DNA of 48,398 nt, counting the filler, from Catajapyx aquilonaris (Eukaryota), in the NCBI GenBank assembly GCA_000934665.2. It is 2 parts of 2 records of this genome, joined end to end, with 100 filler letters (N's around TTAATTAATTAA, not from the genome) between each part and the next. Parts side by side here need not be neighbours in the genome. Positions count along the whole stretch, not along the records: positions 1 to 24,149 come from KZ539372.1; 1 more part is not named here. One strand, 5' to 3'. Of the stretch, positions 2,224-40,454 are shown one piece after another. The notes under the pieces are model-generated. The model did no database searches, was not told the origin of the DNA, and was given only the letters and a program-made list of their open reading frames with translations. The position numbers and the translations under genes are program-made. How positions within the stretch are numbered: position 1 is the first letter of the stretch; each line of letters begins with the position of its first letter.

Positions 2224-5194
2224 TCAGGCCGTGATGGTTATGGACTCCAGCTTCGAGTTCCCAGCAAATATATCGACCATCTGAAGGCTTCCACCTGCCA
2301 TGGCGCATCGTATAATATGTACCTGCAGGACAGAGAGAACTTGATTTAGAAACTTTGCAAAATATTATGTCAATTCCTACCCCTAGGAGAGACCAGTGAT
2401 AATACTGTAACACTGCAATTTTCTCTTCTGTTTTGACACCCATAATTCCAAACTGTTCTTGCAATATTAGGCCTATGCAAAAGTTCGTGCGGCTGACTTT
2501 GTGTGGTCAATAACTCTAAAAATTACAAGCACACCAGTTGTGAGGCTAACCACTACACCACTGTCACCCTGTTTTGCATAGATATGTGATTCTGGTATCG
2601 GTTGGTAGGAAAAGACATGATGGTTGCACTTTTTTCCATATACAGTATGGATGTTGCCATTGGTTGTAAACTACCTGGACACAATAATGGTGTTGCACCA
2701 GGAAAAACATGTCCTGGGGATTTGGGTAAACATAATGCAGGGGGGGGGGNTGTGGTGGCCGTGATGGTAACGTCTCGGCTTGCTGAGTGAAAGGCCCCAG
2801 GTTCGATCCCCGCCTGGGGAACTTTCCTTTCACCTGCGTCAGGAGGGTCTCTGACCTGCACCAAGGAGGTGTCTGGCAACCTAACCTCCTGGGGAACAGC
2901 ACATGACCCCTTTACAGATCTTGCACTTGCACCTATGTTCCCTCCCCAAAAATCCCTACCCCTACCCTACATCCTTGTCTCCTTGCACCGGTGTATGAAG
3001 TTAATTCAGAAAATGGAGTGAAATGGTGGTATTCCACCCCCCTATAAAGGCTCAGCCTTATCACGGGGTAACGTTAAAAAAAAAAAAACAGTATGTTATT
3101 GTTAAGTTACTATCTTTTAATAAGGCTGAAAGTCCCCCTGTACAGGATATACGTATAAAAAATGTTTCTTACTAGGAGGTCATCAGGTTGAAAGTGTACT
3201 CTTTGACAGAAGCCCCTCCTGTAAGAAACACCATCTATGCCAACAGAAAATATTTACCATCAATTTCTCATTTTCAAAATTAAATAAACATTACAACTGA
3301 CACTGACTTCTGCTAGCTTGGCTTTCTGGTGAGGCCCAGTTTAGACATTTATGTCTAATGAACTACAATAATATTGGAACATTCCTTCGAAAATAAAATC
3401 GATAAGTTAACTCATCAGTTGATATAGAGGGTGTCCCTAAATGATTGTCAACATTTGAAAGCTGCTTAATTTCTATTAGTTGCGGTGTCCAATGACAAGA
3501 CAGACATAGAACGAAAGAGCATGCAATAAAAACTCCCAAATATGCACATTTGGGAGTTTTTATTTTACACACTACAAGTGCTCAATATGAGCACCTTTCG
3601 TCACATGACATGATAGTCCACTTCTCTACACAGGCCAGCATGTCTGGTGTGATTGATTCCACAGCAGCAACAATCCTGCGTTTCAACTCACACAGGCTGG
3701 TAGGTAGCCGTGGTACGAAGACCTGGTCCTTTACATATACCACCAGTGGAAAAAGCCACATGGGGTGAGGTCGGGACACCTGGGAGGCCACTGGAGAAAA
3801 ACCAGATCTTGCTGACCGGCATGTCCGATCCACCGATCCTTGCCCTTGCAAAGGCATCCCGTCGTCTGAAACTTCTGGAACCACCGTTGAATTATTGTAG
3901 GGAGGGGCGTAACGTCGTCCGTACTGTCGCCGGAAGGCCTGCTGAACAGTAACTACCGAACCAAGCTTTGCAAACTGCAGGACACAGAACGTTTTCTGTT
4001 CGGGAGACACCATTTTGTGGAGTGGCCCTGTGTGCCTCGTGGCAGAGTGTGGAACCAACTTTTCTGTGTGCAATAAAAACTTCAAAATGTGCTCTTTCGT
4101 TCTATGTCTGCCTTGTCATTGCACACCCCATCTGATAGAAATTAAGCACCTTTCAAAAGTTGACAATCATTTAGGGACACCCTGTATATAATGACGGTCA
4201 AAATCTTGTCTTCCAACATGAAAATAATGCTTTGCAGCTGTCAGAATCTCTCTCTGCAGCAGTGATCCACTCAGAAAAACATAAACCCTCATACAGAGGG
4301 TACACAGTACAGTACAACATTACTGTGAATGCAAATCTATACATTTACTTAAAATGCAATGAAATCTCGCCTAAATGCAAATGCCCCAAGTTCCACCAAC
4401 TTCCTGAGCAAAAGCAAGATTATCCCCACCAAACACCTCTGTACTGTATATTGCTTTGCCCCATGATAGGAATAATAACTGGGGGTATTAGAGTGTACTC
4501 ATGACCCAGAGGGCTACTTATAGTTGATTTACAGTACTGTACACCATAGCATATGATCTTCTGGACATTTTGAATCCACTCTCACCATGAAGACTATGAA
4601 AACAGTTCACCAGAAATTTTCGTTTTATGACTACTTAGAAAATGCCCAAAAAACTACAAGTGCAAAAGACATTAAGGAAACAATCACAATCAAGAATGAG
4701 CAGTAGGCCTATACTAGATAAATAAAATCCATACCTCCTTCAGACATTTGCAACGTGTTGCCAAGTTTCTCAGAGCTTCCTCCGGGATTGCAACCCTTTC
4801 CAGGTGTAAAACTTGTAGGTGTGGCCCCACAGAATTAAGAATTCCATCCACTTGTCCCTCGCCAAACTGGATCGCCTTTAATATTTTGACATATTTGAAC
4901 CCCTTCATTAGCTGCGCACCTTCCTCTGGCTCCAAGAGCTGCAGACCAGTCACCGTCAGTTGAGTCCACTCTTTCAGGTGTAGGCATATGTTTCTCCAAT
5001 ATTTACACACAATGCTAACGGAATGAATCAAGTCAACACTTGGCAGGTATGCAAAAATTCGCAGCAGCATTTCTGCAGGTAGAATTTCTCCCTAGAAATA
5101 CATTTGAGCAAATTATTTCCTGACACAATGGCACAATTCCTGTCACCAACTGTGTTATCACCTCTTCTCTGTCGAGCATCCATACATTTTCCAT
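2224..5194 (-). CDS. F-box/LRR-repeat protein, short (~162 aa; possibly truncated or pseudogenic). Exons 5194-5162, 5091-4735, 2322-2224
   Basis: F-box motif 'ILPAEMLLRIFAYLPSVDLIHSVSIVCKYWRNIC' followed by LRR-like segments (GPHLQVLHL, RCKCLKEVHI, NSKLESITI); GT-AG phase-0 introns join the three exons in frame; early TGA at 2224-2226. The middle exon is firm, the terminal exons less so. Confidence 0.7.
2750..3088 (+). mobile_element. tRNA-derived SINE with poly(A) tail
   Basis: A box TGGCCGTGATGG, B box GGTTCGATCCC, non-tRNA body, ends TATCACGGGGTAACGTT(A)13. Confidence 0.85.
3427..4184 (-). mobile_element. Internally deleted Tc1/mariner transposon (DUF4817-type HTH transposase remnant)
   Basis: ~70-bp imperfect TIRs (xAGGGTGTCCCTAAATGATTGTCAAC...) with TA flanks; ORF has the N-terminal HTH 'MVSPEQKTFCVLQFAKLGSVVTVQQAFRRQYG' and C-terminal 'YVKDQVFVPRLPTSLCELKRRIVAAVESITPDML' but no catalytic DDD/E core. 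Confidence 0.9.
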
Positions 5195-5436
5195 GATTCG
5201 TGGCTGTTGTGTATCCTGTGGCCAGCTGTTAAGAAAAAAGAAGTCATTAATTCCATCACTTTAATGCTGCTAGGTGAGAATAATGAAATGTTAATGCAAG
5301 TAAGAGGAGATATTTTTTGTTCTTCTTGAAAGGAATCAACCAATATTTTATAAGGCCAGGCAAGGGATATGTGCAAGGGGGAATGTCTCCAGTAACAGGG
5401 TCAAGTTGACAACTGTCACTTTTGGGTTCCCAACAG

Positions 5437-5882
5437 TCAGCTTCCTGATTTTTCTTTCTGCAGGTGAGGCGAGTGACTTGAGTAGCTCAGTAGCACATCA
5501 CTGTTGGAAATGCTGATGCACAATTCTTCAAGGTTGGTCCAGGTAAAGTCTTGATCTGTTTTGGCCTCCCTTGTTGTCCCACAGATCCAACTTCTGAAGG
5601 CTGGGGCAGCTGGAGGTACAGCATGTAGAGCCATCCTCTTGGAATCCTGATGGTTTAGCAGATGCTGACCTTCATCAGTTGCTGTCTAGGTACCTTGAAG
5701 AGGCGCCTGAGTCCTTTTTTCTGCTTCAAGTGGTCCCACTTCATGCTAAGCGACTCCAATTTGGGAAAGGAATTCCCAATAGCATTGAAAATATTATGCA
5801 GACAATATTGTGACATATCTCTCCCTCCACACTGCCTTGTGTAACTTTTGTACAACTGAAGTCCTCCCTTACCTGTCTGCAT
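5437..5882 (-). pseudogene. Frameshifted leucine-rich-repeat exon relic of an F-box/LRR paralog
   Basis: LRR-like motifs FPKLESLSM, SCPSLQKLDLW, TNLEELCIS and HSPHLQK occur in order but in different frames with intervening stops. Confidence 0.6.
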
Positions 5883-8051
5883 AATTTATGGACCACCCCA
5901 AAATTTGTTCTGTTTCTGGGCTAAATCCTCTACTTGAACTAGTGCATACATTCATAACCAATCCTACAATATCTATTCAAGTAGGGCTCCTGGGATAGAG
6001 TAATCTGCTTCACATGGATAGTGGCATACATATAAATAAATATCCCTGGTCAACTAGAATAGACCTATTTAAGTGAGGCTACTAACATTATTATTTCCAC
6101 CATTGACAATGGTGCAATTATAATGTCCATTGCACAGATAATAATTCTGCATTCTGAATGGCGTCATCATGGAATCAACTACACCAGTAGTATATTGTTT
6201 CTCAAACATTTTTGACTGCATTCCACTTCAGGAAGATGAGGAGTGCAATAGACTTTGGCGCCATACCCATGGTAAGCACATTGCCATTTCTTCTAGGAAA
6301 ACTCTTCTTTGAATGAATAGAACCTTGATAGAACATTTGGTCACTTATTGGTCCACTGTATAGTGGGCTGTGGATTACACTTTGTGATCCTCTGAGCTAG
6401 AGCATTCTTAATTATTACCTGTGCAGCATTCAAGTGACACTTCGAATATATTTCTGTACACATCTGAAAGGAGCATGGAAAATATGAAAGGCCCCAAAGA
6501 AATGTCACAGCTAGAAATCACATTTAATTCCATGCCTGCCAATGTACTTCATAAAACACAACATACTGGCTGATTTAGACCTAATTGGGAGATAAGTTAG
6601 GTTATTCTAGCATAATTAAGTTTAGAGAAGGTTAACTTAAAAATAAAATTAAGTTGGCATTCCAGGCGCTGTGCTGACTTTCCTCGGCACCAGTGATCAT
6701 GCACATAAACTGATGCTGCGGTACTTTTTTATCCGAATTTTGAAACTAAAATGTTAATCTTTCATATGGCGAGATGTGCATGGGTGTGTCAAATTTGCCA
6801 AACAACCTACCAGCACAAAAGTTGAAGGTACACTACTTCATGCTTCAGTGTACACTTTGCTACAACTTGATATATGTCATTCAATAATCGATTGCACTTT
6901 TTTAGGTTGTGATGAGTAAAGTCACATTCTCACAGGTATGATGGACCAATATTACTGGACAAATCAGTCATTTTGTGTTGTTGTAGGTGTGTGGGAAGCT
7001 GGTTCACTGTGTCTCGAATGTACTAGAATTTTCTGAACGGCCTTCATCACTAGTAATATGGCAAAGTTGCATTTGCTGGATTTTCAGATTTGGGGGGGNN
7101 NNNNNNNNGGGGGGGGTGGGGGGGGGGGGGGGGGGAGGTCGGGGGAGTGGTGAACCTGTGAGAATAACCCTTGAAGTCTTCTGATGTAATATTTTACTCT
7201 ACTTGCCTTGCCCTCTTCCAGACTCCTTTCCCTTGCGCCTGCACCGACCTTCAGAACAGGGAAGACGAACCAAGACCACCAATACCAGCAGCAATAGAAC
7301 ACGGCACACACTCGTCCAGTTTTATCTCCAAGCTCCAATCCGCTCCAACCTGCTCCAACCTATGCTCCAATCTACCCATCAGGGTCAGGGATGCCAATGG
7401 CAATCATCCAATAAAAAATCAACATCACTAGACTTATTTTAATTATTTTACCATCTAAACTTGTTTAAAAGTCATGTATAATTTTTAAAATAGTATCTCA
7501 TTCCCTTTGTTAAAAAATCATAGTTACTACTGTATATTTGTGCCACCGCGCATCAGGCCGCGCATGGTGTGCGTGGAAATGGCGGCAATTCAAGAGTCAA
7601 TTATTCACTGTTAATAATTGAGGCCATGCCAGCATATTTTAATCACCTTCGAGTAATGTGAAGATAACAGCAACGCCAGAAAGTGACATTCAGGTCCTTA
7701 GATTGCGTGGAAAGCTCGTGAGAACCTAGGTTTTTCTGAGAATTCGGATCACACACAAAATGCGCTCTCGCTCTTGGTGCCGAGAACAGGTGGAAAGACA
7801 AAACTACATAAGGGATGCCAGAAATCATTTTCCATCTTTCCGTCTTTTAAAAAAATTTCAGAGGTTCATGAAACATTAGACTATGCAATGTATAAGGGGA
7901 TTCATATGACTCATTCAGAGACATACAGTAATAAGATATACTCGTATCAAGTTTTAAAACCATGTAATAAGTGACAGCTGGTGACAGTGTACAGCATCGT
8001 CTGTGCAAAGTGTCCTATACAAAATATGAGAGGAACACAAAGACACAAAAA

Positions 8052-9397: not shown

Positions 9398-9581
9398 ACA
9401 TCACAACATTTCCCTATGACGGGTAGTCAGTGATGAAGGGAGATGCAAGCTAACCCAGCATATGAACTAAATTAAAACTTATGAAAATAAAACTACTATA
9501 AACAGCCTGTCCCACCCACCACCCCTGCCCATCTCAGATGACATAGGCTCTACACTGAATATTTAATTTAATATTAAAATT

Positions 9582-10035
9582 ATGGTTTGGCCATATGGAG
9601 AGGATGAAGGAGGAGGAGATTGTGAAGAAGGTTTATTTGGGTGGAGTAGTTGGTAGGAGGGGCAAGGGTAGGCCTAGGAAGACATGGTTGGACCAGGTGG
9701 GTCAGTGTCTTAAGGGTGTTGCTAGTGTTAAGCCGAGACGTTCTTGTGTCAATAGGACCATGGACGTGGCTGAGGCTACAGGTGTTTGTTTGGATCGATG
9801 TAAATGGCGTAGGTTAATTAATGGGTAAATAGGTCTTAGGATAAGGCTTCTTTGGCTCCGGCGAGTAGAGGGGATGTCCCTGGTAGGGTCGATGAGGTGC
9901 AAAGGTGGTGCCATACACGTCGGTGTGGCCAGGACGTCCGTAGTAGTGGCTGGTGGCGAGGGGGGAGGGGCTTGATTTGGCGAAGGACCGTATCGTAGTG
10001 TAATATTTATATTGCTCTTCAATAATAATAATAAT
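9582..10035 (+). mobile_element. 5'-truncated RTE-clade LINE (ORF C-terminus, 3' UTR, (TAA)n tail)
   Basis: 'WFGHMERM...GRRGKGRPRKTWLDQV...DRCKWRRL' is the characteristic RTE C-terminus; ends in (AAT)n. Confidence 0.85.
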
Positions 10036-11498
10036 CAGTCATATAATGTACACTTCAATATTTATTTCTCGTCAATATTCCTTTTTACAGGTTTCATATT
10101 ATGCAGTAGTAACATGTTTAAAAATGGTTACTTATAGCCACCCCTAATCATCACTGGTATGAACTGATATAGTATCTGAAAAAAGTAATTAAGAATATTG
10201 TTTGTACACTGGTCAAGGTGTGAATAACAAGGTGTGAAATATGACATATTAGTGTATCCAGAAAAAGTAGCAACTGTTTCAGGATAAGTGTTTAAAGAAT
10301 TCTCCCCCAAAAAATACATTTCAGCCAGCATGATGGCACACCCTTCAGTTGCTACTGCAGCTGACAATATGTCAATTAAGGCATTCATCATACCATAGAC
10401 TAGAATTTGTATGTCAGCATCACGAACTCATCACCAAGCCAAGTCGCTTGGCTCACTGTCACCCCCTCGATTGTCATCTAATTAAAATTTTCTTAAGATG
10501 GTGACAGTGAAAGAGTGATTGGTCAATATATTGCATGAGTGCGAAAGGTTGCACCACTGTCTTGAACTGTTCAAGATTTTATTACTGTATATGTAAGGAC
10601 CGTGGTGCGCAGCCAGGAATCATGGGATGATGTAATTATTTGAGGGGAATGCGTTAAACACTTTTTAAGCCCAAATAGTTCTTCCTTCTGTCGATCCACC
10701 AATATGTACACAATCATAAAGCTTCAGAAATTCTTCCTGTTCAAATTCACTTCTCTACACTTTGTAACTACTTCACAAGGCAACAAATTCAAATCACTAC
10801 AGCCCCATGCAGCCAGAAAGAATGGATCCTGTGGCTTTGCTTGACTTTTTGTTCTTGTTGTTGTTGTTGTACTAAGCCCAATGAAAAATCAATCTACATC
10901 TAGGAGGTAACAAAGCTACTTTCCTTCCACTACTCTTTTAGTTTTGTACACTGTACATGAGAACAATGTTGACACTACCTGGAGACAGTGAATAAGAAAT
11001 GATGCAATGAAGCCCCACAACAACTGGACAACAAATTGCTTGATAATGGAACATTTGCAGATTTTCATCTGCAATGAAGATCAAGGATCTACCACCATAA
11101 CGACTAAACCATCACTGGAATTTTTGTGCTAAAATTGTGGTTCTGGACTGCACAGTTTTCTTTAAAAATTCTACTGCATCTGCATTGGCCTGGCATCACT
11201 TGACACTGCAGACATGCGATAAAATACTCGAATTAACTGTGCAGATGTTCAAAGGGGATCAAAGGGGCCACAGGCCTATCACTGAGTAATACCCAATTAT
11301 TATGCAGGCTAAATTTGGCAGAAGGATTACAAATCCAACCCAATTGTACTTATTTCTATACATCACCGGTTACTAAAATTGAGGAAATTACTGAAGTGGC
11401 AGTGCATCTCTCCTGTCATGTATATAGAAATCTCTGCTGCAGTCCCAGAAGGACAGTTTTGCACCATGTGCCATTTACAAAATCCAACCCAAATATGG

Positions 11499-11744
11499 CT
11501 ATTCCACAATTGCATCAGCAACATCAAGAGCAATCAGCAGGTCCTGACCCTGCAATAGATTGTTGGTGGCCAGGACGGGAGCATTCACTTCACAATCCTG
11601 GGCCGTCAGGTGAAGAAGAGATGAGAGGTTCACACAGCATGGGTCAAACTGCCCACGTTTCTTGGACAAAGTTGATGAAGGAGGGCTCTCATGGGGATCT
11701 AGGAGTGATGGCCGTGTTCTGGCAGGCACTAGAGGAGGGCAACC
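11499..11744 (-). CDS. sima: HIF-alpha terminal exon with C-TAD (FIH-target asparagine)
   Basis: Poly-T acceptor ttttttctcag|GGT; 'LTAQDCEVNAPV' motif; TAG at 11499-11501. Confidence 0.93.
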   Translation of the reverse strand, partial: GCPPLVPARTRPSLLDPHESPPSSTLSKKRGQFDPCCVNLSSLLHLTAQDCEVNAPVLATNNLLQGQDLLIALDVADAIVE

Positions 11745-14700
11745 CTGAGAAAAAAAACAACATAAAAATGAGATTACAAAAGTGGCTATGCTACTGGCCA
11801 GCCAAGCGGAGGTCCGGGGGGTTCAAATCCTGTCCCGTCACTTTCGCTTGGTCAGGTCTTTTTCAGCTTTTCACCCGACATGTCTGGGAAGAATTGCACT
11901 CCTTTCTCTGCCCATGGCCAGGAGAAAAGGTCTGGTATTTAAGAGAGTCAGAAATGACTACTTAAGAGCGTCCTCCCTTTGGAACTACCCCTTCCCCCTC
12001 TAAGAGGGCCCCTGGCCCTATCACGGGGTATTAAAAACAAACAAACAAACAAAATGCTGTTAATAGTTCAATATGCCACAGTAAATAGTCATGCTAATGT
12101 CACAGACCCCATTACATGCTACCTATCATACAACTCCATGTATGACAACTTCTTGTTGGATAAGCACCCTGTCCTTAGTAAGAAAGAGCAACATGAGAAC
12201 TCAATAAATTTTGTCTTCTAGGTTATTATCTTACAGAAAACAAAGTAAATTTTTGATCACATTTTGCATTTAACAAGATGATGAGCAGCACATCTCAAGT
12301 CCCAAATATGAAAGTGTCAGCCACCACTACAAAAATGGTGACAGCAGACAGTGCAGTAGTCAAGTCAAAAGGGCGAGCCATCAGACAGGCCCGAATTAGC
12401 ATTCCATGATAAGCATTTTAATATTTTCTGATTAAATTAATTTTAAAAAGGGGATCATATCTAACATTCTCTATCCACAGAATTGGCCTTATCCACATAC
12501 TGAAACAACACTATTAATGCACAAAAAAAGACAAAAAATCATGTGACTTACCAGCAAGTTCAGTAAGACACTTCCACTGTGTGGTGATTGCTCCCCATCA
12601 GATGGTGATTGTGAGTTTGATGAAGGAGAATATGCACTTGAGGAGGAGGAGGATGATGATATTGTTGAGTCCAAGGAAAGGGTCCTTGCTCCACTTCCAT
12701 AGCCCTTCCCTTTCTGTGTGTTCAGGCTAAGTGAGCCAGTGAGGAGAGCCTTGGTGACATTTGGCACACTTGGGTCATATTGAGGTGCTGGAGGAGGAGG
12801 TGGGGCATAATAATCCCCTGTTCCTCCCTCCAGTCCAACTTCCCCATTTTCGGTGACATCAGGACTTCCAGTGTCATCCAGACTTAGACCGTTCAATGGG
12901 CACAGATCTTCTGATATATTGCAGTTGCTGCGACTGCGTTTTGGGGGTATCACAGACTTGCTCACAGAGCCTCTCTTCACAGTTAGGGACAGACCTATAA
13001 TATGTTAATGATCAGTCACACAAAATACTTGACAATTTTTCCAAAAAGAAAAATCACTAATTATTTTCTTGAAGTTTGAGTTTCAACATGAAAGTTAGTG
13101 GTGTCAAATACACCAATTGCAAAAAATGCAACTGTGGTTCTCTGAGTGATGGAGTAGCCAAGAGGAATCATACATTTAAAATATTATTATTTTCTCTGTG
13201 AAGTGTAACAACGCATAAATGAGCAGCATTGCGCCATAAGTTCATCCAAACAATTTCCACCTGAGGGAGCATAATGTGCAATAAAAATTCATGTCATATA
13301 TGTTCACCACTACTAACAAATGCTGCAGTACATGGTAAGGCTAGTGTGTGCATCCCGAGCAAATGATAATATTACAATTAATGTATCAAGCAGGAACAAT
13401 AATGGCATGCTACACCTTCAACAGTGCACCTTAAGAGCAGATATGCAACTGACCTTTCCCTCTCTTTGCTTCCCATGTTGAATCTGTCTTGGCACCTTTC
13501 CTTTTCTGGTGTGGAAGGGCAACAGTTCCATCTTTACCCGACTTCTCCCTGCCAATTCCAACTCCTTGATATACCTCCTGCCCCTTTCCACCCCCTCCAC
13601 CCCCTCCACCACCGTCATGGGGAAGGGATCTCATTGTAACTGAAGGAACATCCTTCTGCAGCAGCAACTGTGCAAGACTGGGTGCTTGCACTTCAGGACT
13701 ACGAACTGTTGCCTGGGGCTGCGGACTTGTCTCTTGCCTAATTGTACAGAAGAAGAAAAATTAGTATCGGTCATCTTTCTTCCCTCACAAAGTACCTCAC
13801 CATTTTGGGTCTGTTGGAACAGGCACTTCCCATGGTGATCCCCACATCATGTCCCCACCACTTATCAAGGGAAAGTCATCTTGGTCTAGACCTAATGAAC
13901 CAAGATCCTCCTCCATTTCGGTCAGATCTGAGTCCCCAAAATGTAGGCTTTCTTCACTGTCTGGATCACTTTGGTCCATCAAAGTTGATAATTTTAAGTC
14001 CATATCCTGAAAAAATGACAAAATATTTTACATAGTCGTACATATCCTTTCTTTCATTATTATAAGGCTAGAAACAGGGGGCTTTAGCTACAACACAGCT
14101 TTAAAATGGTACAATCCATAACTTCAATGAAAAATTATTTATTCCCAACTGAATAAATTTTCTTTTGTAAATGAGCTCTGGTAGGCACTCACTAGAAGAT
14201 ATTATACGCAATTAGATTAAAAATAATCAACCTGGATTCTCAATTGAGCAATGTATCAGAAACAAACAGTGCAGCATAACAATTACTATCATTATATCAC
14301 AAAATATCACTGGGGCATGAAGCCTGAAACTTGTTGCACAATTTTTTCCTGGTGTATGATTTTCTTGAAAATACAAATCAAGGAGAGGGAAGTCCAAAAT
14401 TGGGGGAGAGATACATGGAATTGGGCATTTTCAAATACTGTTAAACCTGTCTATAATGGACCCTAGATGCATAAATTTCACAGAAATTACAGAAATGGGT
14501 GTCCCCAGCACAGGATTTTTATTACACGTATTTCACATAAAACTAATCTGTTCATTGCAGAAGTCTTATGTGGAATGATGCGATTCCTCTATAGACAAGT
14601 TTCACTATTTGCTTTGGTATAATGACTGGTGTTATCCTAATTTAAGCGTAATTATCAAAAAATTTCGGAAAGACAGCCAACCTTTAGCGCTAAAGGTGAT

Positions 14701-17700
14701 GCCAGCAACTCATCCATGTCACTATTAATAGGTACTGTTTCCTCTGCGTCACCACTAGCCAATGGTGACACAGAAGGAACAACTGCAGTGGGTTCAATAG
14801 CTGGAGCAGATAACAATTTGGAGGTGACTGGCTGTGATGTAGTTGGCTTCGCAGCAGTGAATGGGGTAATGGTCAGTGATGTGATGTCCGGTATCGTTGG
14901 AGAAGTTTCCAGCTCATCTGTTCTCTCCAAGTCCAAGTTATAGGGGAAATCAAAATCGTCCTCCCCCAAAATGTCAAAAGGAATATCCAATGGGACACAA
15001 ATGTCACCAGCAATGGGAGCCAAATGGGTTAAGTCCTCCACTTCTTCTGCCAGATCTGCGGATGGACAACATGTTATGTATCATATACGTACAATGTTCT
15101 TCACCCCTTTATAAATAACAAAGGGAGATATATAATTGTACTGCTATCTGTATGTTGTCATTTAATTTGATTAAGGCCAGAATCTGCAAGTACAGCAACA
15201 ATGTCTCATAAGAGAAAATGTAAGTTACACACAGACTGATACACAGGGTGGTCCACCAAAGACGACCCACTTACAGAAATATCCCTTATTTAGATGTTTC
15301 CAGTAAGAAGAAGAATAATAATAACAATAATAATAAAGGATACCCCGTGATAAGCCTCCTTGGGCTTTTTAGGGGATCATCTATTTAATTGACCGACTTT
15401 AATCATTGCCTTTGCTGTGATGGATTTTGATTGTGGGAGGAAACGGTAGAACCCACGCAAACATGGAGAGAACCCATCGAAACTCTATCCACATATAAGC
15501 ATCCTCTGTCCGATCCGGGGATCGAACTCAGGACCTTAGAGGTGGAAGGCTTTGGCGCTAACCACTACACCACCATGCCACCCTACAGTAAGAATAATAA
15601 TATTGTGTTATTGGAAGGACCCTGCACACCTGTTTCTACCCCTTCAGATTGTTCAGCAAGATGACTTGGAATATTCAATCTCTTATGCATCCTAATGAAG
15701 AAATAACACGTATTTCTATAGTATAGTAAAACCTACACAGGGTGTTCCAAGTATATTAGTACTTTTAGTTAAAGGAAATTTCATTCGAAGCTGTTATTTT
15801 TTGATGCTTGTTACACCCCTAACCAGGTGCTCTATTCTATAGCAACTGGAAATATAAGCGAAAAAAGTGAGTGACGTGAAATGAAAATGTCAATTCTCTC
15901 ACAAAACTGCAACAAAGTCTGTGTTTTCTACTAAAAAGTAAAGGCTCACCTGTAACTTTAACCTCATTGTCTGTAAAGATGAGGAAGCCCTTATTCATAT
16001 CTTCCGTCCTAGGCACAAGTATCTTATCAGTGCTGGCCTCTGGCAATGAGTTTGGTTGCAGAGAGGCGATGAAGTCTGGCAGCAGCAGTGAGGCAATGGG
16101 CACTGTCTCGAGGAAATCCACCACGCTCTTGGTCCCTTGGTCAGGTACAACCACCGAGGCCTTCAACTCTGCCTTCTCCAACTCTTCCTTCTTCTCCTCC
16201 TTTACTTCCTTCTCCACACAAATAGGCTCCTGCAGTGCAACTACTGGCTCTGGTGTTGGCACCAGTGATGACCCAAGAGACAATGGACATGTATTCCCAT
16301 TGTCCTTACTCAGCTGGCTGCACGACAAGATCTCATGCTCTTGCTCAATCCCACTATAATGTTGGGAGGGGGAGGCAAAAGTAAGAAGCATGATAATCAG
16401 CTCTTTGCTCTGCTCAGATAAGATCATCACTTATTGATCTTCACAAGTAACTGCCACATATTAGAAATATGACTGCAAATCCCCCCGACACCAGCAAATA
16501 GTGCTAAAAATCGCTAACCCCTTCAATTTGAACACACAGTATTTTTTCTGCTCCTAGTAATGTTAGAGTAACTGCACTGTAAAAAGTAGCTGACTATCTA
16601 ATTTATGACAACTAATATGGACAGGCGCTTCAATGGGGAAGTGCAAGTGACATGTTAAAAACATTACTGGCTTATCCCAATCACCGCCTTTTTAAATGCC
16701 ACTACCAATGGGGCAATGGGGTCGTCCATACTAGTGTGTCATGCTGTCGGTCAAGAGTGGCAACACAAACTTCAACTGCGAATTTCTTTCATACAATAGT
16801 TTGTCAAGTAGTTTCGCAAGGAGGGATCACAGCTAGCATGACCTATCTTACGGTCGACCTCCAACTGCTTCACTTTTCATATTATGCACACTAGCCTGCT
16901 AGGTAGCACGTGTTATGGTGCAACCGCTTGTTTTGTTTGCAACTCGTTTGAAGGCAGATTGGGCCTGCAAATATTACCTTCTTCTCTTATTTTTTTGCTC
17001 GTGTTTCGGAACTCTGTGCGCCTTTGTTGTCAAGCTTGGAATGTTGGATCTGTTTCCTTGGCCTCAACTCCACTTTGGCTTCACCCTATCTTCAGGCAAA
17101 GGCACAAGATTCTTCCTATCTTCCCCTCTCCGNNNNNNNNNNNNNNNNNNNNNNNNNNNNNNNNNNNCGATCAGGCGACGTTCACAGGCGCTACTCCAAA
17201 ACTTTTTTCCGAAACACACCTGGCCAATTTCCACTTTTTCAAGCACCCCCTTTCGGACCGCAACCCCCATTAAAAATAACTCCCGTCTCTAACAGTTCGC
17301 TAAAAATCCTTCAACCTGATATCACCCTGTAATATCCACGTGCGGCCCAGCCCAGCCCTGCCACCCAAACGTGTCACTTGCTACTTCAAGTCAATTTGTC
17401 TCGCCTTATTACCCGACTTGTGCGAATAAGGAAGGACGGAAATAGTCGGAACATGTCGCAAGGTAGATCTGTACATGACCCCGATGGGAAATGTTTTTTT
17501 TTTTGGTCTTTCATTCTCCTCCGACGATTACGATGCGGGTCCACATCCAATAAATCCTGGTCTGAGGACCAATAAAACTTGGAAGATGGCTTCGTCTTAT
17601 CTTCCACTCTCTTGCTGAAAGGTCCTTTCGAAGAAGGGGGAAACCCTCATTTATATTCCTATCGAGATTCAGATTGCCGCTACACATTTCAACCCCTATC

Positions 17701-20700
17701 TACCCACTTCTGCCCGCAGCCAATCAGCCCGGGTTCACACAAACGCGTCGTTGTAGTTTAGAATCCCCCAAATACACATCGATATCAATCTTCAACTTGG
17801 GATACTTTAAGATTACGCGTCAAACCTCAGCTCGAGATAGTTCGGAGCCTGGAGCTGACCTTCTTTAGGTCAAGGCGAAGGACCAGGAAGGCAAAATAGG
17901 TACAAGCCAACACTTGGAAGAGTCATGGCCAGAAATTCATTACATAAGTAAGCAAACATGTAACTTTACATCAGGAAGAGTGACGCCTGCTGTTTTTCTC
18001 CCCTCCCCCTCCCCCTCCAGCGATTACATGCGAGGAAAACAAAAGATATTTTTTTCCCCCACTTGACTAGGATAGTGTACGTTCGACTTCCGGGTTGTAT
18101 GATTCCATTCGAGGTGTGTTTTCGTCCCGTCTCCCCCTGTGAGGAAATGGTTCGTTGGCCCTGAGCACCACAAACATCGATCTCCCATCGCAATCGGCGA
18201 GTTCTGCTACCGGAGCAATAAGCTGAAAAAACTTGCTTGGCCCAATTCCAATCACCATTCAAAACTTCCGAAACTTTTGTCACAAAGCCGAGTTCAAAAG
18301 TCCTGTCCACAGATGTTAACAGCTCNNNNNNNNNNNNNCCCCCCCCCCCACCCACCCTTGATAACACGTCCGCCACAACACACACGCACTTACTGCGTCC
18401 AATCCGACCCCAAATTCACGTGTGGAGTTCGATAAATCCGGTGTCGGGGTCAGCGCGGGTCGGCTTGGGTCACCCGCAAGGCACAGACCCCGACCGAAGT
18501 AGGTGGCCGGCCCGCGCCGACTGAAAATTTTCGGGTCTTCCGACGTAGTATTGGGCAACCTTCCAAACAGCCCGCCTCCTCCGACCAAAGCGACGTTGCC
18601 GTTATGACGTCGATACCCCACGATTCAACCGACTCCCTCGCGGTTAAGGAAATGCAAGACAAGGGTTGTTTTTGCCGCTCACAAAGAGTTGCGACTAAAA
18701 TCATTCGTGGCAGCACCTAGTCATGTGACCGGTGAGAGGCGGGGGCTTAGGTCATAAATCGAATCGTGACATTAGCGTGACAGGACAGGGTCGCCGTGAC
18801 GCAATGATTGTCGAGGTCTAGGCAAGCAAGGATCGGATATTGAGACGTGAAATCCCGGAATTGTCTTCCGCGATGATGCGATGCCGTCACAATCATGTGA
18901 CATATTCAATTGTCCTCGTTGTGTTCGTCTTGCCTCATGTGATTCGAGTTGTATAACCGGCCTCCCACTTGCAGAACGATGCAACAATCCCCTTTCTTGG
19001 CCTCGGAGCCAATGCTAAGCAGGGGGGAGGGGGAGGGGGGGAGGAGAGAGAGAGGAGGCGCCTGATGGTCTACCTACTTCGGAGATGTTTAAATGACAGG
19101 AAGCGGACAGCTATTCGCGGACAATGAGCGACAATACCACTAACAATAGCTTGGACGTCAGTGTTATTATATGAAAACATACATCAGGAGCATATGACAC
19201 TATGCCGTGCATTCCTGACACATACATATGCTTCACGACATCTATGCCCTCTCATACAAACCAGTACGCTACAACGCTACGGGCCAGACACAGTCAATTG
19301 AGACTGAACGCCTGGCAGGGCATGGCTGCTATGGTGTACCTCACCTTTAAATAAGACTTTACTTTTCACTTAGGTCGAATTATGCAGTGTGCCTGGCTCC
19401 ACAACTCAGGCCCACGGGAGTAAAATGAGTGCCTGAGAAAATGATCTTGGCAGCTCACCAAAGTTGGAATGGGGTTAGCTGCTTTACTCGTCTGCCACAT
19501 GATAAATTATAATAAAGGCCTGACAGAAAGTAGAATTAAGAAGGATGAAAGGTCGAATGTGATGAACCAAGGTTGGCAGAAATATGAGGTAATATCTGAC
19601 ATTAAGCTCCACTTGACACCACGTCAAATCATATTTCCCACCTTCCCTCCACAGAACAATCTTATGAATCCTGTACTATTAATAGGCCTCTCCCTCTCCA
19701 CTATTTCTGAGACTATCCCAGGCTCACTCCTATTTTTTCTCTCTGCACTTCTTTCTCCCTAGAAGAGTTCCTCTTTTAAAAAGGCTCTTCCTACTTCAGA
19801 ACAACCTTAATCAGGCTCAGCCTGCATGTCACAAGTATGTAGCAATTTATGTACAGTTGCTGTTAATGAAAATGTAAAATGGAAGCCTACCTGACAACAA
19901 AGTTGACACACACAACACTCTGAGGCTGCTGGGCCTTTCCACCATATATGAGTGTTGACTGGGTCTTGACCCAAACGTGACCACCATTTTTCGCAAGAAA
20001 TCTGTACACTCCAGTCTGGACTTGGCCTTTTTTAAACACTGAATCAAGAAAGACACACACGCACATATTACTACTTCTGAAATGCAAACCAGTGTGCAAA
20101 GAAGTTAAGTCTAAAAAGAAATACTCACAAATTTTGTAGCTTTCCTCAATGGACTTGCAGTCAAACAAATGGCAAATGCTGTACAGGGAACTGCCCAGGA
20201 GCTCCTCTTGATCATAGCCAAGAAACTCTCCAATCCTGAAATGTCAATATGACTGTGTCAATGAAGGTCAATATGGATCATGTGTACAGTTGTGAGTTTA
20301 CACTCATGATGAAGAGGGATTGGGTAAGGTGCTTAGCAATGAGTTCCCTGTAAAATTAGTGATGTATGTACAGTATCAGATAATGTTTTTGATGTTTACT
20401 CAGCAACATACAACAGCATTAAACACATACGTCACCAGCTTTAGAAAGAACCCGTTGGAGTTTCATATCTAGTCTATCTCCATCTTTATGCTTGTACTAT
20501 AACGCCCAAATACATGAGACGATTTTGCATTTGATTCAAGTGCAGGCTGCACTTGAGTCAGATGCAAAATCGTCTCTATGTTTTTGAGCGATATAGTACC
20601 TCTACACATGTTATTGCATCTGGTACATTAGGGTATACTCATCAGCTTGAATTTTTATTGCAGCAATAACTAACACAGTCTATCATACTATTGAAGCCAG

Positions 20701-22885
20701 CCTAAAAAGTGGAACTCTCTATAATGAGTTTCTTCAAAAGTGGCAGAGGAACTTTTAGACATCTGTTAGTTTCTCAAACAGATGTAGAATAAGATTTTAT
20801 CCAAAAGGTAAAGGCCGATCAAGGAGGGAAAGGCACTGACAGAAAGAATTTGCATCATGAAAAGTACACACATCTGAGCTATTAATTTCTGCCTTGAGAG
20901 GAGACAAGCATATCAAAGTGGGAGTCATGGAGGTGCCTCTGGTGGGGCATGATGAAAACGTCAACATTCAAAGCAGAATTTGAAAGATTCAATGGGCATG
21001 CTCAGCATTGCATTGCAGTCTTATCAGGGCCTTTCAATTGTTGGCTAACCTGTAAGATAATGCCTTATTTCTGTCCTTCTCTATAAAAAGAATGGTCTCT
21101 TTGTGTCCAGTGTCTAGGTAGGTAAAAATATCCTGTCAATCAAGTGCCTTTTATAATAACTCCATGGAAGATGTTTGAAACTCAATTAATCAAGGTACTA
21201 CCATGCCATACATTTTTTCCACTATGAAATGCCTGGAAATCTAATTCCACTTACAAAAAAAAGCTTAGTTACAAGACAGTCAGAGTATGCTACACTAGCC
21301 TAAATGCATTACTTTCAAATTTTTAATGTCTTCAAAAAAAGATGCTGACCAACCACAAAACACTTAAAATAATCTAGATTTTAATGCACTATAATGCACT
21401 CTTGCTGCAAATTCCACTTTAAAATGCAGACTGCTGTCATGTATTTAATGCAGGCTTGCTTAGTATTGTTGTCAGCATACATTTACCAGTTGCAGGCAGG
21501 TGCAAAATTCCTCCATTTTGTTTACAAGAGTTTTAAAAATTATGAAAACAAGTAGCCTACAGATCATTTAATATTTTCAGCCAGTGCCCACCCATGTAAT
21601 GTTATCCACCACCTCAACCCAAACACAACACAAGACACTTACAAAAATGTGGCCCTGTCACACTTTGTGTATGATAATTTCCAAGCTACCTTGTGTCAAG
21701 ATTATGACGTGTCAAGATTATGACATGACAACACCATGTCTTTGTGAGTGTCTTATAGTGCCAAAATGTAGATTTGGGTTGAGGCGGCAGACAGCATTGT
21801 AAGGCAGTGAGTGGGTGTTCACTGAAAACATTTGACAATCTGGAGTAGGGATTAGTCCTCATTCTTTTAACATAGGTACATTTAGCCACAATACATCCAC
21901 AGAATATGAGCCCCCTCTTCCGGTTCATTTTTCCTAAAGATACGTTAAGTTTTGGCCAACTACCTTGGAAGTTGTGCGAGTTTTTTTGACAAAAGAGTTT
22001 TCTTTTTGTCAAATATTTCAAGTCCAAAATATCACATATAAACCCCAAAAATTTATGCCATGTGTGACACATTTCAATAATTACCACAACACTATCATAG
22101 ATTCCAAAATTTGTGAAACATCATTGCCACCAACATTACCAATGCAATGAAAAGTGAGAAAAAGTGTGTTGATAAAAATAATCCAATACCACTTTTTCTA
22201 TTTTTACTTTAAGATTTCAAAGGTCATAAATAACTGAGCAGCCTCATTCCCAAAATATTCCTTAGAAGGTTTAGCCCCATTCTTATGTTGTCCAATGACC
22301 TGCATTATACAACATACCATAATAACACGACCATAATAATGCTCCAAATCAGTGCATTACTGGTCAATGTTGAAATATAAAATGAAACTTTCTAAGCAAG
22401 AAACTAATCCAAAGTTCAGAAAGTCAAAATATGTCAACTCACTTGTCATCCACATATGTGAACTTCATATCCAGACTGTGCTTGCTGAGGAAAGTTTGTT
22501 TGTCCAGTGGTATTTCAATGTTGGATGGATGTGGGATTGGTTCCCCGATACCCAAGAAATAATGGGTAGCAGTGTCAGATGACCCAGTGGATCCTAAAAA
22601 GCTGTCTGTTGAACCTCCTTCTGAATCGCTTCCTGCCTTCCCATGGTGTGAAGAATCTTGGCTGATGCTGTCACAGGAAGGGACAATCTGTCCATTGAAA
22701 TGAATCACCTTGTAGCCAGCTGACTTGAGGTTGATGTTCCGGCCATTGCTGGTCAGTGTGCACTTCATGCGGATGAACATTGAATAGGGAGAGTTTGCCT
22801 GACCCTTGCTCATAAACATCTCCCGGATTTCATCATGGTCACTTGGATGGCTGTATTCATACATATTCTGTCCCATTATATCCAC
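11499..22885 (-). CDS. sima: Hypoxia-inducible factor alpha (HIF-1alpha/sima-like), 5'-incomplete. Exons 22885-22443, 20235-20129, 20038-19891, 16353-15950, 15055-14682, 14006-13801, 13737-13454, 12994-12552, 11744-11499 (884 aa)
   Basis: PAS-A 'YEYSHPSDHDEIREM...FIRMKCTLTSNGRNINLKSAGYKVIH', PAS-B 'EPIPHPSNIEIPLDKQTFLSKHSLDMKFTYVD...KGQVQTGVYRFLAKNGGHVWVKTQ', N-ODD 'LTHLAPIAGD', 'SLAQLL', 'SVLLNLL', C-TAD 'LTAQDCEVNAPV...LLQGQDLLIALD'. All eight introns are GT-AG with compatible phases; total 2655 nt in frame. Confidence 0.95.
11782..12052 (+). mobile_element. tRNA-derived SINE in the last HIF-alpha intron (antisense to the gene)
   Basis: B box GGTTCAAATCC, 3' end TATCACGGGGTA followed by an (AAAC)n tail. 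Confidence 0.75.
14438..14606. mobile_element. Degenerate pogo/Tigger-like MITE
   Basis: Imperfect TIRs CTGTTAAACCTGTCTATA / TATAGACAAGTTTCACT, TA on the left. Confidence 0.5.
14682..16353 (-). CDS. sima: HIF-alpha exons 16353-15950 and 15055-14682 (post-PAS region and N-ODD)
   Basis: 'GIEQEHEILSCSQL', arthropod-type 'TDKILVPRTEDMNKGFLIF', and 'EDLTHLAPIAGDICVPLD'. Confidence 0.92.
15310..15585 (-). mobile_element. tRNA-derived SINE with V-domain-like core
   Basis: A box TGGTGTAGTGG, B box GAGTTCGATCCC, core TGTTTGCGTGGGTTCTACCGTTTCCTCCCACAATC, 3' TATCACGGGGTA + (TTA)n tail, TSD CAGTAAGAA (15301-15309, 15586-15594). Confidence 0.85.
16978..19130 (-). promoter_or_regulatory. CpG-rich promoter/5' UTR-like block inside a HIF-alpha intron
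   Basis: Visible CpG enrichment relative to the CpG-poor flanking introns; clustered TCATGTGA/CGTGAC/ACGTG motifs and a GC box at 18720-18945; Inr-like TCAGTC on minus at ~18520; donor AAG|GTAATA at 16978/16977. Confidence 0.5.
19891..20235 (-). CDS. sima: HIF-alpha PAS-B/PAC exons (20235-20129 and 20038-19891)
   Basis: IGEFLGYDQEELLGSSLYSICHLFD... / LFKKGQVQTGVYRFLAKNGGHVWVKTQSTLIY...VVCVNFVVS with GT-AG sites. Confidence 0.93.
20494..20599. repeat. ~105-nt near-perfect palindrome (hairpin) in a HIF-alpha intron
   Basis: GTACTAT..GAGACGATTTTGCATTTGATTCAAGTGCA-ggc-TGCACTTGAGTCAGATGCAAAATCGTCTC..ATAGTAC. Confidence 0.85.
22443..22885 (-). CDS. sima: HIF-alpha exon: PAS-A C-terminal part, linker, start of PAS-B
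   Basis: Acceptor ttcttcttcaccag|GTG, donor AA|gtgagt; canonical bHLH-PAS motifs. Confidence 0.95.
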
Positions 22886-23798: not shown

Positions 23799-24057
23799 GG
23801 CTGCCACCTGCTCCCAAACCAACACCTTAGCAATGAGCAGCTTACACGTTAGTGCAAAAAGTTCATGACTGAAAGAAACCATTCAATTGCAACACTAGCT
23901 TGCTGGAAAAACTATGTGTCACATTGCTTTTAGAAAGTAAAATACTGCTCATGAAATACGTATATTTTTAAACATTACGGTTACTTGAAAATCTGACTTA
24001 ACTGGATGCTAGTCTTCAAATACCATGTTGCTGAAGAAACTCATATCTTTACCTATA

Positions 24058-24149
24058 CAGGGTGTATCTGAACTCAGTGCCCCGACGTATATGACTGCCT
24101 TCCTAGCCACCAGAGGATCGATTTAAGTATAGGAGTCATATGTCTGGGC
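24058..24149. mobile_element. End of the same long-TIR Tc1/mariner MITE, cut by the assembly spacer
   Basis: TA|CAGGGTGTATCTGAACTCAGTGCCCCGACG... identical to the start of 33283. Confidence 0.9.
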
Positions 24150-24249
24150 NNNNNNNNNNNNNNNNNNNNNNNNNNNNNNNNNNNNNNNNNNNNTTAATTA
24201 ATTAANNNNNNNNNNNNNNNNNNNNNNNNNNNNNNNNNNNNNNNNNNNN
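24150..24249. other. Artificial assembly spacer N44-TTAATTAATTAA-N44
   Basis: Exactly 100 nt, symmetric, with a palindromic 12-mer giving stops in all six frames. Confidence 0.93.
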
Positions 24250-33025: not shown

Positions 33026-33282
33026 TTAAGGGTTGAAAGAACGATTATATGCAAAATATCGCATAGATTCCGATCTAAATCATTTCTAAAGTCCCAGAAT
33101 TGAGCTAGAATTCATACAATCTCAATCACTGCGCATAGAACTCGTTCCAATATGGCCGCCGGAAGATAACGTCATCCGAAAATGTCCGAGAAAGCACTTG
33201 AGTACCGGTATGTGATTTTTGTGTTGAATTCTGCGGTTTTTGCTTGTAAATATGCCGAAAACTGCATTATTGTGATTATATA

Positions 33283-33674
33283 CAGGGTGTATCTGAACTC
33301 AGTGCCCCGACGTATATGACTGCCTTCCTAGCCACCAGAGGATCGATTTAAGTATAGGCGTCATTATGTTTGGCCGCCGCATTACGGAGGGGATAATTGG
33401 CCGCAAACATGTAGTACAAAATATCCTGTCGGTTAGGCCACCCATCGAACCCTCCCCCAGTCAGAAGGCTCTGGAAGGTCTGGGGGCCGGACTTTGTTGG
33501 TTTGTTGCCCACAGGTGGTAAGGGCTCTTTGGCTAGTTACACCAGAAAATTCTGTTTAAAAGTCAGAAGGAGCGATTAGGCAAAAATCGCTAAAGAGTGT
33601 ATCTCAGTAATGAGGCTGCCCAGACATATGACTCCTATACTTAAATCGATCCTCTGGTGGCTAGGAAGGCAGTC

Positions 33675-33740
<66 letters not shown>

Positions 33741-34117
33741 TAATAATAATTGTGGGGGTAGTGCTCACCGAGAAGGTGTTTTTGCACGGACCTTTATTTT
33801 CAATTCGTACATTTGGAGCCTTGAACGAAGCGCCCGGGCCCACGGGCAGGATGACAGGAGGGGATGTGCAAGGTGCAGTGCGACTGACGCGGTGGCCATT
33901 TTTAGTGAACTCCCCCGGGTGGTTTAGTCTGTAGGAAATACCACCCGAGACGAAGCCAGAGGTGACCCTGAACTCTGCACGAGATGAAGGGGGTGTCCCC
34001 GGGCTGGGATCGAACCCGGGACCTTAACATCCGTGGGCGCGCACGTTACCGCGGCGCCACTTCGTCTCCCCGGAAGGCAGTCATATACGTCGGGGCACTG
34101 AGTTCGGATACACCCTG
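33283..34117. mobile_element. Full-length Tc1/mariner MITE (~105-bp TIRs) interrupted by a SINE
   Basis: TA|CAGGGTGTATC...GATACACCCTG|TA; right TIR split by the insertion at 33680-34071. Confidence 0.92.
33680..34071 (-). mobile_element. tRNA-derived SINE with (TTA)n tail and 16-bp TSD
   Basis: Minus strand starts GGGGAGACGAAGTGGCGCCGCGGT (A box) ... GGTTCGATCCC (B box); tail 33680-33750; TSD GGAAGGCAGTCATATA at 33664-33679 and 34072-34087. Confidence 0.93.
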
Positions 34118-36032
34118 TATATATACGACGTATATATATATTTTTGCAAATAATCCCAAAGTTTTTGTCCGGATTTGTCCGTGGAGGACGGACACGGCGG
34201 GGAGAGAATTAAAACCTCCATAATCTCCACATAAAAATTGAGAATTTTATTTTTCCACTTATTTCAAAGGTGGATATGAGGTCGGTTTTTTTTCAATATT
34301 AGCGTACAACCGCCTTCATTTCCACTTAAAATAACTGGAAATTGTTATTTTCAATATAAAGTTGAAATGAAGGCGGTTTTATGTGGAGAATACTATTTTC
34401 TATTTATCAGTGGAAACTGAACGAGGGTGTAGTACTGTAGTGGATCGTCCTGCCGATAAGTGTTGTGTTCAGTCCGTTTCCATTGTATATGAATTAGCTC
34501 TATACCGTATTTAGATGCATTTAGAAGCTGTCAAATTTTTCTGCGCTTTTTGTTGCTGTGGCATCGTCTTTTTGTCTTGTTTGTACAGCTACTTACAGCT
34601 AATTACAAAGGCGTACTACAGGTCATGAACTAAGTTGTTATCATTTGAAGTGTGCGCAAAATGTATTGTTTTCTGAACATACAAAATTGGTCTGACTTTT
34701 AAGATGCTTATTGCAACTTAGCTGCATGAACAGTGACTCATTGTTATATTAGTCTTTTTGAAATTTAAGTAGAGATAGAATATCATTAGCAATAAAATGG
34801 AAATCCCGGCTTTCCGACACATTCTGTTACGTCATAGAAGACGAGAGCTGCTTAAATATTTGTTTAAATAAGCAGTCATTTACCCATCGTAACAAGTGGT
34901 TTCCACAAAGTTTTAGTGCTTCTCTGCAGAGAGCGGGACAGAGATGCTTAGACAATGATGGCTTAAAATGAATAACATGAGAGGGTTGCAGCAGCCTTGG
35001 TCCTCCCAAAAATGCTCATAGACGTGGCTTTGATCTGGCTGGGGGGAAACTTGCTAGGGCCTTTATCAAGGAGAAAAGCAGCTGCTCTTCGTCTACTAAC
35101 AAGCAGGTTATCCCGAAAATAAAGAGCCTCCCAGGCTTGTAATTCATTAGAGCTTTTTAAATTTGTCAGATGGCGGCCGAAAGCTCCTTCTCTGTTGCCG
35201 GCAGCTTTTGAAGCCCACCAGGGGAGGGGGCCTTGCTTCCATTTGTAACCCTTTCATTCCATCTGATTACGTATCGCAGTCATGTAAGCCATTTGTTAGA
35301 TGCGAGCCTGTTGGCCTGCCTTTCATTTGATGACACATTATCGCCTTCCATTATGTAAGCTCAAAGTGATTATTTCTGAGGCGGAGTCTACGCGTTCATC
35401 TTCTACTCCTGGAAACTCACACAGAAAAGGATATGTGCCAATTGACACAAAAACGTGTCAAATGTATGCCTGAGGAAACACGCCTGTAATGTGTCACAAA
35501 GCCACGCGCCCATTTGCCATCCGACACATTCATAAGCGACACATAAAAGTGAGTCTCGTCAGGCATAAAAGTGGCACACTGTTTCGTGTTGCTTGTAATC
35601 TGTGCCATTTGACACATGTGCTATTTTCCGCTTTTGACACACGACTGTGTGTTTATTAACACTCGCACGATGTGCCATTTGACACAGTGAACTATGGAGC
35701 CTTACTTATTATTGCTCTCGTGGAGTAATTTTACGCCGCCGCGAGTTTGTTATGTACACAACGTCTCTGATTGGCCCATGCGAACGCACTGGTGCACCAG
35801 TGAGTTCTTGTGGTCCATAATCAGAAAGTAAGTTGCACACATCTCGCCGGCCCGGCGTATACATACTCCGCGCGAGTGAGAATGCTACACAGCGTTACTG
35901 AGTAGATATTATGTTAATGCATATATAGCTACTTACGTACCGTTAAGTGCAACAACGGACGCCAAGCGACCAGCAAGATGCAAGCAAAAATTAGGCGAGT
36001 TCTGAAGATTCCCGTCTCGCATCACTGCTATA

Positions 36033-40092: not shown

Positions 40093-40454
40093 GGCTGAGA
40101 CATCTTGATAAAATTTAAAAACCTATGTCCTTTGCGTTTAATAATCATGGCCGCCTGTGCCACTGTGAAGATAGCCATTTTATCTCTCAATAACAAATAT
40201 AATGCAGTTCACTATCAGTTGGAAAAAAAATCGACTACCACAATAACGCAACTCAAGCGTTGGAATTTGCTCTGATTTATTGAGAGGTCTCACTATCTCA
40301 TACTGAGGAGCAGACACAAAATATTTATCCTTGATGGCGACTCATCAGTCTGTTGTCTACCGGAATGCTGGTTCCCACAGGTCCCACATTTAGTAATAGT
40401 AGCAGTTGCAGTTCTCGGGGCTTTGGGCTTTGGAGCCTAGCCAGGGAAGCCCTC

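Follow-up and report, generated by a model that had tools for sequence, protein, structure and literature searches.

We analysed a window of 48,398 nucleotides from the genome of Catajapyx aquilonaris (GCA_000934665.2), in which two contigs, C3287 (positions 1-24149) and C3288, meet at a join at 24150-24249. On the minus strand of C3287 lies a HIF-alpha gene, whose features are collected in Table 1. Nine coding exons with AG/GT ends can be read in the window, and their spliced translation gives 884 codons with no internal stop. The nine exons of the original prediction therefore stand, but they are not the whole gene: the bHLH and first PAS-A exons sit outside the window on a separate contig of 3275 bases, C10606, which carries a HIF-type bHLH (PF23171, E = 6e-26). 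At the protein level, the last exon on C10606 stops where the window's first exon starts, and the breaks of the two contigs fall in one shared repeat element (C3287 at its gene-side end); because of this protein continuity and the shared repeat at the break, we read the exons on the two contigs as one gene. Its first coding exon was looked for and not located. The splice from PAS-B to position 16353, which yields the full-length protein, is predicted; the alignment of the spliced contig described below (run X1) covered the window up to position 17000.

Elsewhere in the window, one short repeat family with inverted ends, for which we infer the label MITE-like, recurs at 1-176, 24054-24149, 33279-33679 and 34072-34121. 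Pieces of an F-box gene lie, together with LRR-like sequence, at 4717-5885 on the minus strand, the F-box itself being at 4717-5091 (E = 3e-10), and two diverged copies of one stretch, with similar open frames, at 37745-38119 and 40328-40884. A multi-exon gene at 44224-46442 (minus strand) we take from its motifs to be glycoside hydrolase family 1-like, and we presume that a mariner-like stretch at 3585-4115 (minus) and a retroelement-like one at 9559-9825 (plus) are transposon-like remnants.

The domains of the protein place it with HIF-alpha. Its PAS-A and PAS-B, which have PAS Pfam matches, are closest to those of HIF-alpha, and among the 120 matches listed the named rows are nearly all HIF-alpha, sima or EPAS-like, the remainder being uncharacterised. 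In a profile search the N-ODD, the first of the two oxygen-dependent degradation elements, scores 37.6 bits; the C-TAD matches PF08778 (E = 3e-11) and fits the FIH target motif LXXXXX[D/E]VN defined in PMC6488082. That study counts as HIF-alpha a protein with at least one of N-ODD, C-ODD and C-TAD, and this one belongs there through its N-ODD and C-TAD. Of the two-ODD bilaterian type, it has the N-ODD with its target proline and lacks the C-ODD with its target proline.

Table 1. The HIF-alpha gene in the window: exons, motifs and transcript features, in the direction of transcription where stranded
Feature	Position	Strand	Remarks
Exon: PAS-A tail, linker, start of PAS-B	22443..22885	-	continues from the bHLH and PAS-A exons on C10606
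PAS-B exon, with a locally divergent stretch at 20160-20183	20129..20235	-	splicing, homolog alignment
PAS-B exon	19891..20038	-	PF14598 and PF08447 matches
CpG-rich intronic stretch	17000..19400		o/e 0.77-1.23 vs 0.15-0.30 in gene body
Inr-like motif 18519-18524 (A at 18522) and DPE-like motif 18491-18495 (+28 to +32)	18491..18524	-	consensus motifs
Alternative exon, probably a first exon, within the intron after PAS-B; joined to 16353	18394..18522	-	loose end of X1 contig
First exon after PAS-B	15950..16353	-	acceptor common to predicted full-length and observed short form
First in-frame ATG of short form	15998	-	within exon 15950..16353
N-ODD exon	14682..15055	-	LTHLAP at 15015-15032; target proline codon 15015-15017
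Intron, removed whole; no hidden degron exon	14007..14681	-	X1 contig, profile search
Exon with C-ODD flanks: acidic upstream, DDFPL..MMW downstream	13801..14006	-	splicing, profile
Seven-codon remnant at site of missing C-ODD core and proline	13881..13901	-	relatives: 10-12 residues
Low-complexity coding exon	13454..13737	-	X1 contig, splicing
Coding exon, SVLLNLL motif at its end	12552..12994	-	X1 contig, splicing
Last coding exon: C-TAD (PF08778), intact FIH target motif 11577-11609	11499..11744	-	motif per PMC6488082
3' UTR	10065..11498	-	aligned down to 10600; remainder inferred from record length

The C-ODD proline is absent from this gene, while the flanks of its site are kept and the N-ODD and C-TAD motifs are intact. 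The LTHLAP of the N-ODD is the sole LxxLAP-type motif of the 884-codon protein, and the statements of the original prediction that the nine exons hold no second such motif, and that the N-ODD and the C-TAD with its FIH motif survive, are both correct; the peptide that it quoted maps to 13839-13919 (minus strand), inside the exon with the C-ODD flanks. A contig of 3511 nt from run X1 (depth 90.5) matches six of the exons with no mismatch and no gap, and it joins the N-ODD exon directly to the exon with the C-ODD flanks, omitting the intron between them exactly. The kind of run is not on record; we read it as RNA-derived because its contig is spliced, which is the only evidence on the point, and as it may share its source material with the assembly it argues against an assembly error more than for the species as a whole. 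The original prediction had named this intron as a place where an extra exon might carry the motif; the contig skips the intron whole, and none of the 21 open in-frame AG..GT pieces within it contains a C-ODD motif. A C-ODD profile built from the homologs gives 14.7 bits on the downstream flank, and 6.8 bits on the next best of 2693 six-frame pieces from the window and C10606.

To place the site among relatives, we aligned 96 homologs of at least 700 residues, drawn from the 120 matches listed; 94 of them cover the proline site, and the column is P in 91. The predicted loss is thus borne out by a spliced contig without an extra exon and by relatives that mostly keep the proline, although the loss nonetheless recurs in several arthropods. 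The equivalence of this column to human P564 is supported, because a cockroach segment aligns, weakly (E = 0.014), with the human C-ODD peptide in PDB 1lqb_D.

On the manner of the loss, the original prediction was half right: the flank did survive, but the degron looks deleted in frame rather than overwritten. Seven residues separate the acidic flank from the DDFPL flank, compared with 10-12 in those relatives, 35 of 94, whose sequence follows the flank pattern. A six-residue gap falls over the proline in four of six pairwise alignments; of the remaining two, one has a five-residue gap just downstream and the other is ungapped. With the cockroach protein, the alignment scores 65.5 gapped and 26.5 ungapped. 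The simplest account is that a small in-frame deletion removed the C-ODD core, leaving it about five residues short. In the human protein the N-TAD overlaps the C-ODD, and the retained acidic-hydrophobic flank probably serves a separate function, for example in transactivation. A search for close relatives with the C-ODD exon returned 15 candidates, none with E<=10, and the best PAS identity in relatives, among the matches listed, is 57%; the loss is therefore not datable.

The genome has genes for PHD, VHL and FIH, and those of their catalytic or binding residues for which an alignment was possible are in place. The PHD gene (C327, E = 1e-33 to EGLN1, with HxD and distal His motifs) was identified by the family search, the pattern search being near chance (67 matches, 49 in the control), and the FIH gene is on C4216 (E = 6e-54). 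VHL lies on C3190 in two exons, the second of which aligns at E = 1e-10 in a PDB comparison; of the residues that form the hydroxyproline pocket it retains His and Trp, and it has Thr in place of Ser. Loss of VHL had been considered and was rejected: a first search was empty, and a laxer one gave the two exons, which were confirmed against PDB. This genome differs from the copepod case, in which, according to the portion of PMC6600937 available to us, the pathway has been lost.

The original prediction held the C-ODD proline to be the main PHD/VHL target. This is the human picture, in which the C-ODD seems to predominate (PMC12537007, available in part), and not that of Tribolium, in which the N-ODD proline is the major site (PMC6488082). 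Over-expressed in human cells, Tribolium HIF-alpha is clearly stabilised by the N-ODD mutation P533A and shows no obvious stabilisation with the C-ODD mutation P635A, and the P533A/P635A double mutant ignores PHD; the authors call the role of the C-ODD fine-tuning (PMC6488082). Conservation agrees with this ranking of the sites: six N-ODD positions are near-invariant (kept in 88-91 of 94 homologs), and five positions before the C-ODD proline are variable (21-67 of 94). The HIF-alpha of Tribolium castaneum shares with the protein described here the bHLH-PAS region, an LTHLAP N-ODD and a C-TAD with the FIH motif, and the beetle likewise has PHD and FIH genes. It has the C-ODD with its proline P635, whereas here both that proline and the core are absent; the window gene thus amounts to a naturally occurring counterpart of P635A, a mutant that continued to be degraded in the beetle test (PMC6488082).

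We propose that PHD would hydroxylate the N-ODD proline, that VHL would bind it once hydroxylated, with destruction in oxygen running through the N-ODD alone, and that FIH would silence the C-TAD. What the loss of the C-ODD would take away is a secondary, fine-tuning site, and any change in the oxygen threshold would be modest. Our main reading, to which we assign a probability of about 0.72, is that the sole HIF-alpha found, its C-ODD core missing, is still destroyed in oxygen through the N-ODD proline alone and gated by FIH, with a modest change in tuning. Control by the N-ODD and FIH, as originally predicted, is the best reading of a gene in which flank, N-ODD and FIH site all survive. Against it, the Tribolium double mutant indicates that the C-ODD contributes, and selection usually retains the proline.

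These same points favour a reading in which the loss markedly weakens oxygen-dependent degradation, the protein being partly stable in normoxia or switched on at higher oxygen and FIH becoming a major control, perhaps as an adaptation to a low-oxygen habitat. The predominance of the human C-ODD, the intact FIH and its target motif, and a fish paralog that has lost one ODD and is read as having a wider stable range (PMC6650433, available in part) would all suit it. We nevertheless consider it unlikely, given that the Tribolium C-ODD mutant showed no obvious stabilisation and that the other animals with a comparable loss or an undetectable C-ODD are varied, including a damselfly, scorpions, the bed bug, a springtail, a millipede and mites.

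The X1 contig, the one contig seen for this gene, leaves position 16353 without entering the PAS-B exon. All 30 letters compared at its loose end match 18394-18423, a match unique in the window and bordered by a GT donor at 18393; the 120 loose letters and the six exons, if the last is carried on to 10065, add up to exactly 3511. The inferred end of the contig coincides with a polyadenylation-type hexamer at 10061-10066. Nine bases upstream of the contig's 5' end is an Inr-like motif, paired with a DPE-like one; we assume these labels from consensus motifs. There are six such pairs in the window on both strands, and the rate in resampled intron sequence is about 0.001 per 30 bases. Together with the CpG-rich stretch around the exon, we read these features as a likely internal promoter in the intron after PAS-B. 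The short transcript would encode 533 residues from its first in-frame ATG, with four out-of-frame ATGs before it. The predicted product has the N-ODD and the C-TAD and is without bHLH-PAS, even the last PAS-B exon being upstream of the alternative exon. An AG at 18521-18522 is a possible acceptor, with which the exon could be a frameshifting cassette.

It is conceivable that the loss of the C-ODD matters mainly for such a short isoform, made from an internal promoter without bHLH-PAS and serving as a decoy for PHD, VHL, FIH or p300/CBP. The isoform itself can point to the sole contig, whose exon lengths add up exactly from the alternative exon to the 3' end, to the Inr- and DPE-like pair in a CpG-rich zone, and to three Logan proteins (P0373, P0347 and P0333) and a RefSeq Polistes model that begin with unrelated sequence at or before the exon edge. 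However, this is one contig from one run of unrecorded type, and contigs cannot show a start or a level; the out-of-frame ATGs and the possible cassette also weigh against it, gene models often split at this exon edge, maybe because of the long intron, and nothing ties the short form to the deletion. We judge this reading quite improbable.

Many insect HIF-alpha models, several named ones among them, have a terminus at the edge of the exon after PAS-B: P0373, P0347, P0333, P0324, P0273, P0284 and P0290 start there, and the N-terminal halves P0007, P0015, P0038 and P0041 end there. On our comparison, two of P0373, P0347 and P0333 look mosquito-like and one wasp-like. The shared edge may reflect an internal promoter that has been conserved, or only the splitting of gene models at a long intron. 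A wider proposal, which we hold to be doubtful, is that an arthropod promoter after PAS-B gives an abundant isoform with ODD and C-TAD and without the DNA-binding/dimerisation domain, which would buffer the oxygen response by competing for PHD, VHL, FIH and p300/CBP; here it would be the dominant transcript, and the single N-ODD would set the threshold of both forms. If real and translated, the short isoform would be a larger surprise than the loss of the C-ODD. The available part of bioRxiv 10.64898/2026.08.17.745244 describes a C. elegans isoform, HIF-1c, that arises from an intronic internal promoter and lacks the DNA-binding domain, and the short form here may be similar in both respects; but HIF-1c keeps PAS-B and binds AHA-1/ARNT, a way of dimerising that would be closed to the short form here, which begins downstream of PAS-B. 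For an insect isoform without bHLH-PAS, the literature searched, some of it available in part, gave only HIF-1c and a mention of four fly isoforms, two of which use exons further downstream.

We searched the animal's own genome for other copies. A full-length phasmid HIF-alpha query gave 11 matches, of which three are this locus and two lie on C10606; the other six we take from their motifs to be trachealess, single-minded, ARNT and taiman. PAS, C-TAD and bHLH queries each returned one HIF-type locus, and a tight N-ODD pattern had four matches, this gene and three copies of one repeat. The latter (L055, L057 and L058) are a repeated element whose frame reads the N-ODD heptapeptide with no HIF context. 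The single match to a C-ODD pattern was rejected, as it too had no HIF context, and a 48-residue query from the cockroach C-ODD yielded no candidate in this genome, missing even the present locus, which makes it uninformative. The assembly consists of 20583 contigs, the searches score the best candidates, and sensitivity to a very divergent copy is limited. Five kinds of search lead to one HIF-alpha locus, and the second canonical copy that the original prediction would have looked for was not found in this draft assembly. With no other HIF-alpha recovered from the genome, the gene is unlikely to be a paralog, and a second copy is improbable.

In a quick tree of 49 bHLH-PAS rows, the gene groups with arthropod HIF-alpha and falls among the pancrustaceans but not within the winged insects (SH-aLRT 89 and 94, both unstarred, with the row of the gene in no starred set), a placement that weakly fits an early-branching hexapod or other pancrustacean. 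Its end branch is 0.67, the median being 0.32. Five PAS-B positions around 20160-20195 (minus strand), among them a Cys at a His/Tyr column and a Leu at an Ala column, are absent from all 96 homologs; a local change in the PAS-B pocket is possible. The original prediction read faster evolution from this stretch. However, mean PAS-B identity to 15 references is 0.61, inside the 0.56-0.62 of the crustacean and chelicerate rows, and although the PAS-A tail has the lowest identity of any row, the margin is small (0.59 vs 0.61-0.73). General acceleration of the gene is not shown by these comparisons, the whole-domain identity being ordinary for a non-pterygote.

The original prediction also suggested a specialised paralog. 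That the gene is such a paralog, or a relaxed one, with a canonical HIF-alpha elsewhere, could appeal to the fragmentation of the assembly, to the five unusual PAS-B positions and to an end branch twice the median; yet bHLH, PAS, C-TAD, N-ODD and C-ODD searches turned up no second locus, the protein read from the bHLH contig C10606 joins up with that of the window's first exon, with a shared repeat at the breaks, and the whole-domain identity is unremarkable, so that we regard this as very improbable. An assembly error or a missed exon, which a draft assembly with gaps in the window might invite, we consider scarcely credible in view of the letter-for-letter agreement of the X1 contig across the site, with the intron skipped and no candidate exon, even if a contig that may share its material with the assembly is no proof for the whole species.

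Losses of this site are found in other arthropods. Among the 94 homologs the proline is absent in three, Ischnura elegans (R) and two Centruroides (T), and it is kept in 70 of 70 further proteins, including two that a pattern had flagged. A profile search of 50%-identity representatives, covering at least 150 proteins, added Cimex lectularius, with Q at the aligned position and the flank kept. It also gave proteins with an N-ODD and an undetectable C-ODD in Orchesella (with a C-TAD), Chamberlinius, Galendromus and Varroa, and one unnamed protein; in all of these the C-ODD region is unalignable and a gene-model error is possible. The proteins with the C-ODD lost or undetectable are P0046, P0056, P0060, P0172, P0213, P0170, P0291, P0292 and P0251. 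On these alignments, loss of the C-ODD proline in arthropods is rare but recurrent. Two spider proteins of the Trichonephila cluster, P0196 and P0314, have the reverse state, with the C-ODD intact and the N-ODD motif undetected.

The proteins of Ischnura (XP_046402265), Centruroides (XP_067119502 and XP_023242372) and Cimex (XP_014253604) have lost the proline and kept the downstream flank, as here; the losses in Ischnura and Cimex rest on one assembly each and that in scorpions on two species. The models of Ischnura, C. vittatus and Cimex carry the N-ODD motif, which is undetected in that of C. sculpturatus. In these animals the loss is mainly by substitution (R, T, Q), whereas here the core is about five residues shorter, and the Cimex model has no C-TAD motif, which is kept here. 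The Orchesella cincta protein (ODN05678) resembles ours in keeping the N-ODD and C-TAD, but its flank is unrecognisable, which is an absence of detection, while the flanks here align. The locust Hif-1alpha2 (PMC9427102, available in part) is an insect variant with altered oxygen control that comes from a single gene, as here; in the locust, however, the C-TAD is spliced out and both prolines are kept, whereas the gene described here retains its C-TAD and is short of one proline at the genomic level.

No paper on C-ODD loss in arthropods was found in the literature searched, a scope that left out most subscription journals. The supplements of PMC6488082 have no C-ODD column, and the available part of PMC2928329 holds nothing on the fly proline. 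The parts of two further papers available to us describe N-ODD loss in fish paralogs and a single ODD in non-bilaterians (PMC6650433), and patchy detection of the N-TAD and C-TAD in invertebrates (PMC5470732).

Nature thus offers here a HIF-alpha with one degron in an animal whose PHD, VHL and FIH genes are retained, and the predicted effect of the loss on this animal is modest. Together with the other losses and the reverse state in Trichonephila, the gene suggests that either proline can suffice for oxygen sensing in arthropods. Such single-degron cases form a comparative set for understanding why bilaterians keep two sites.
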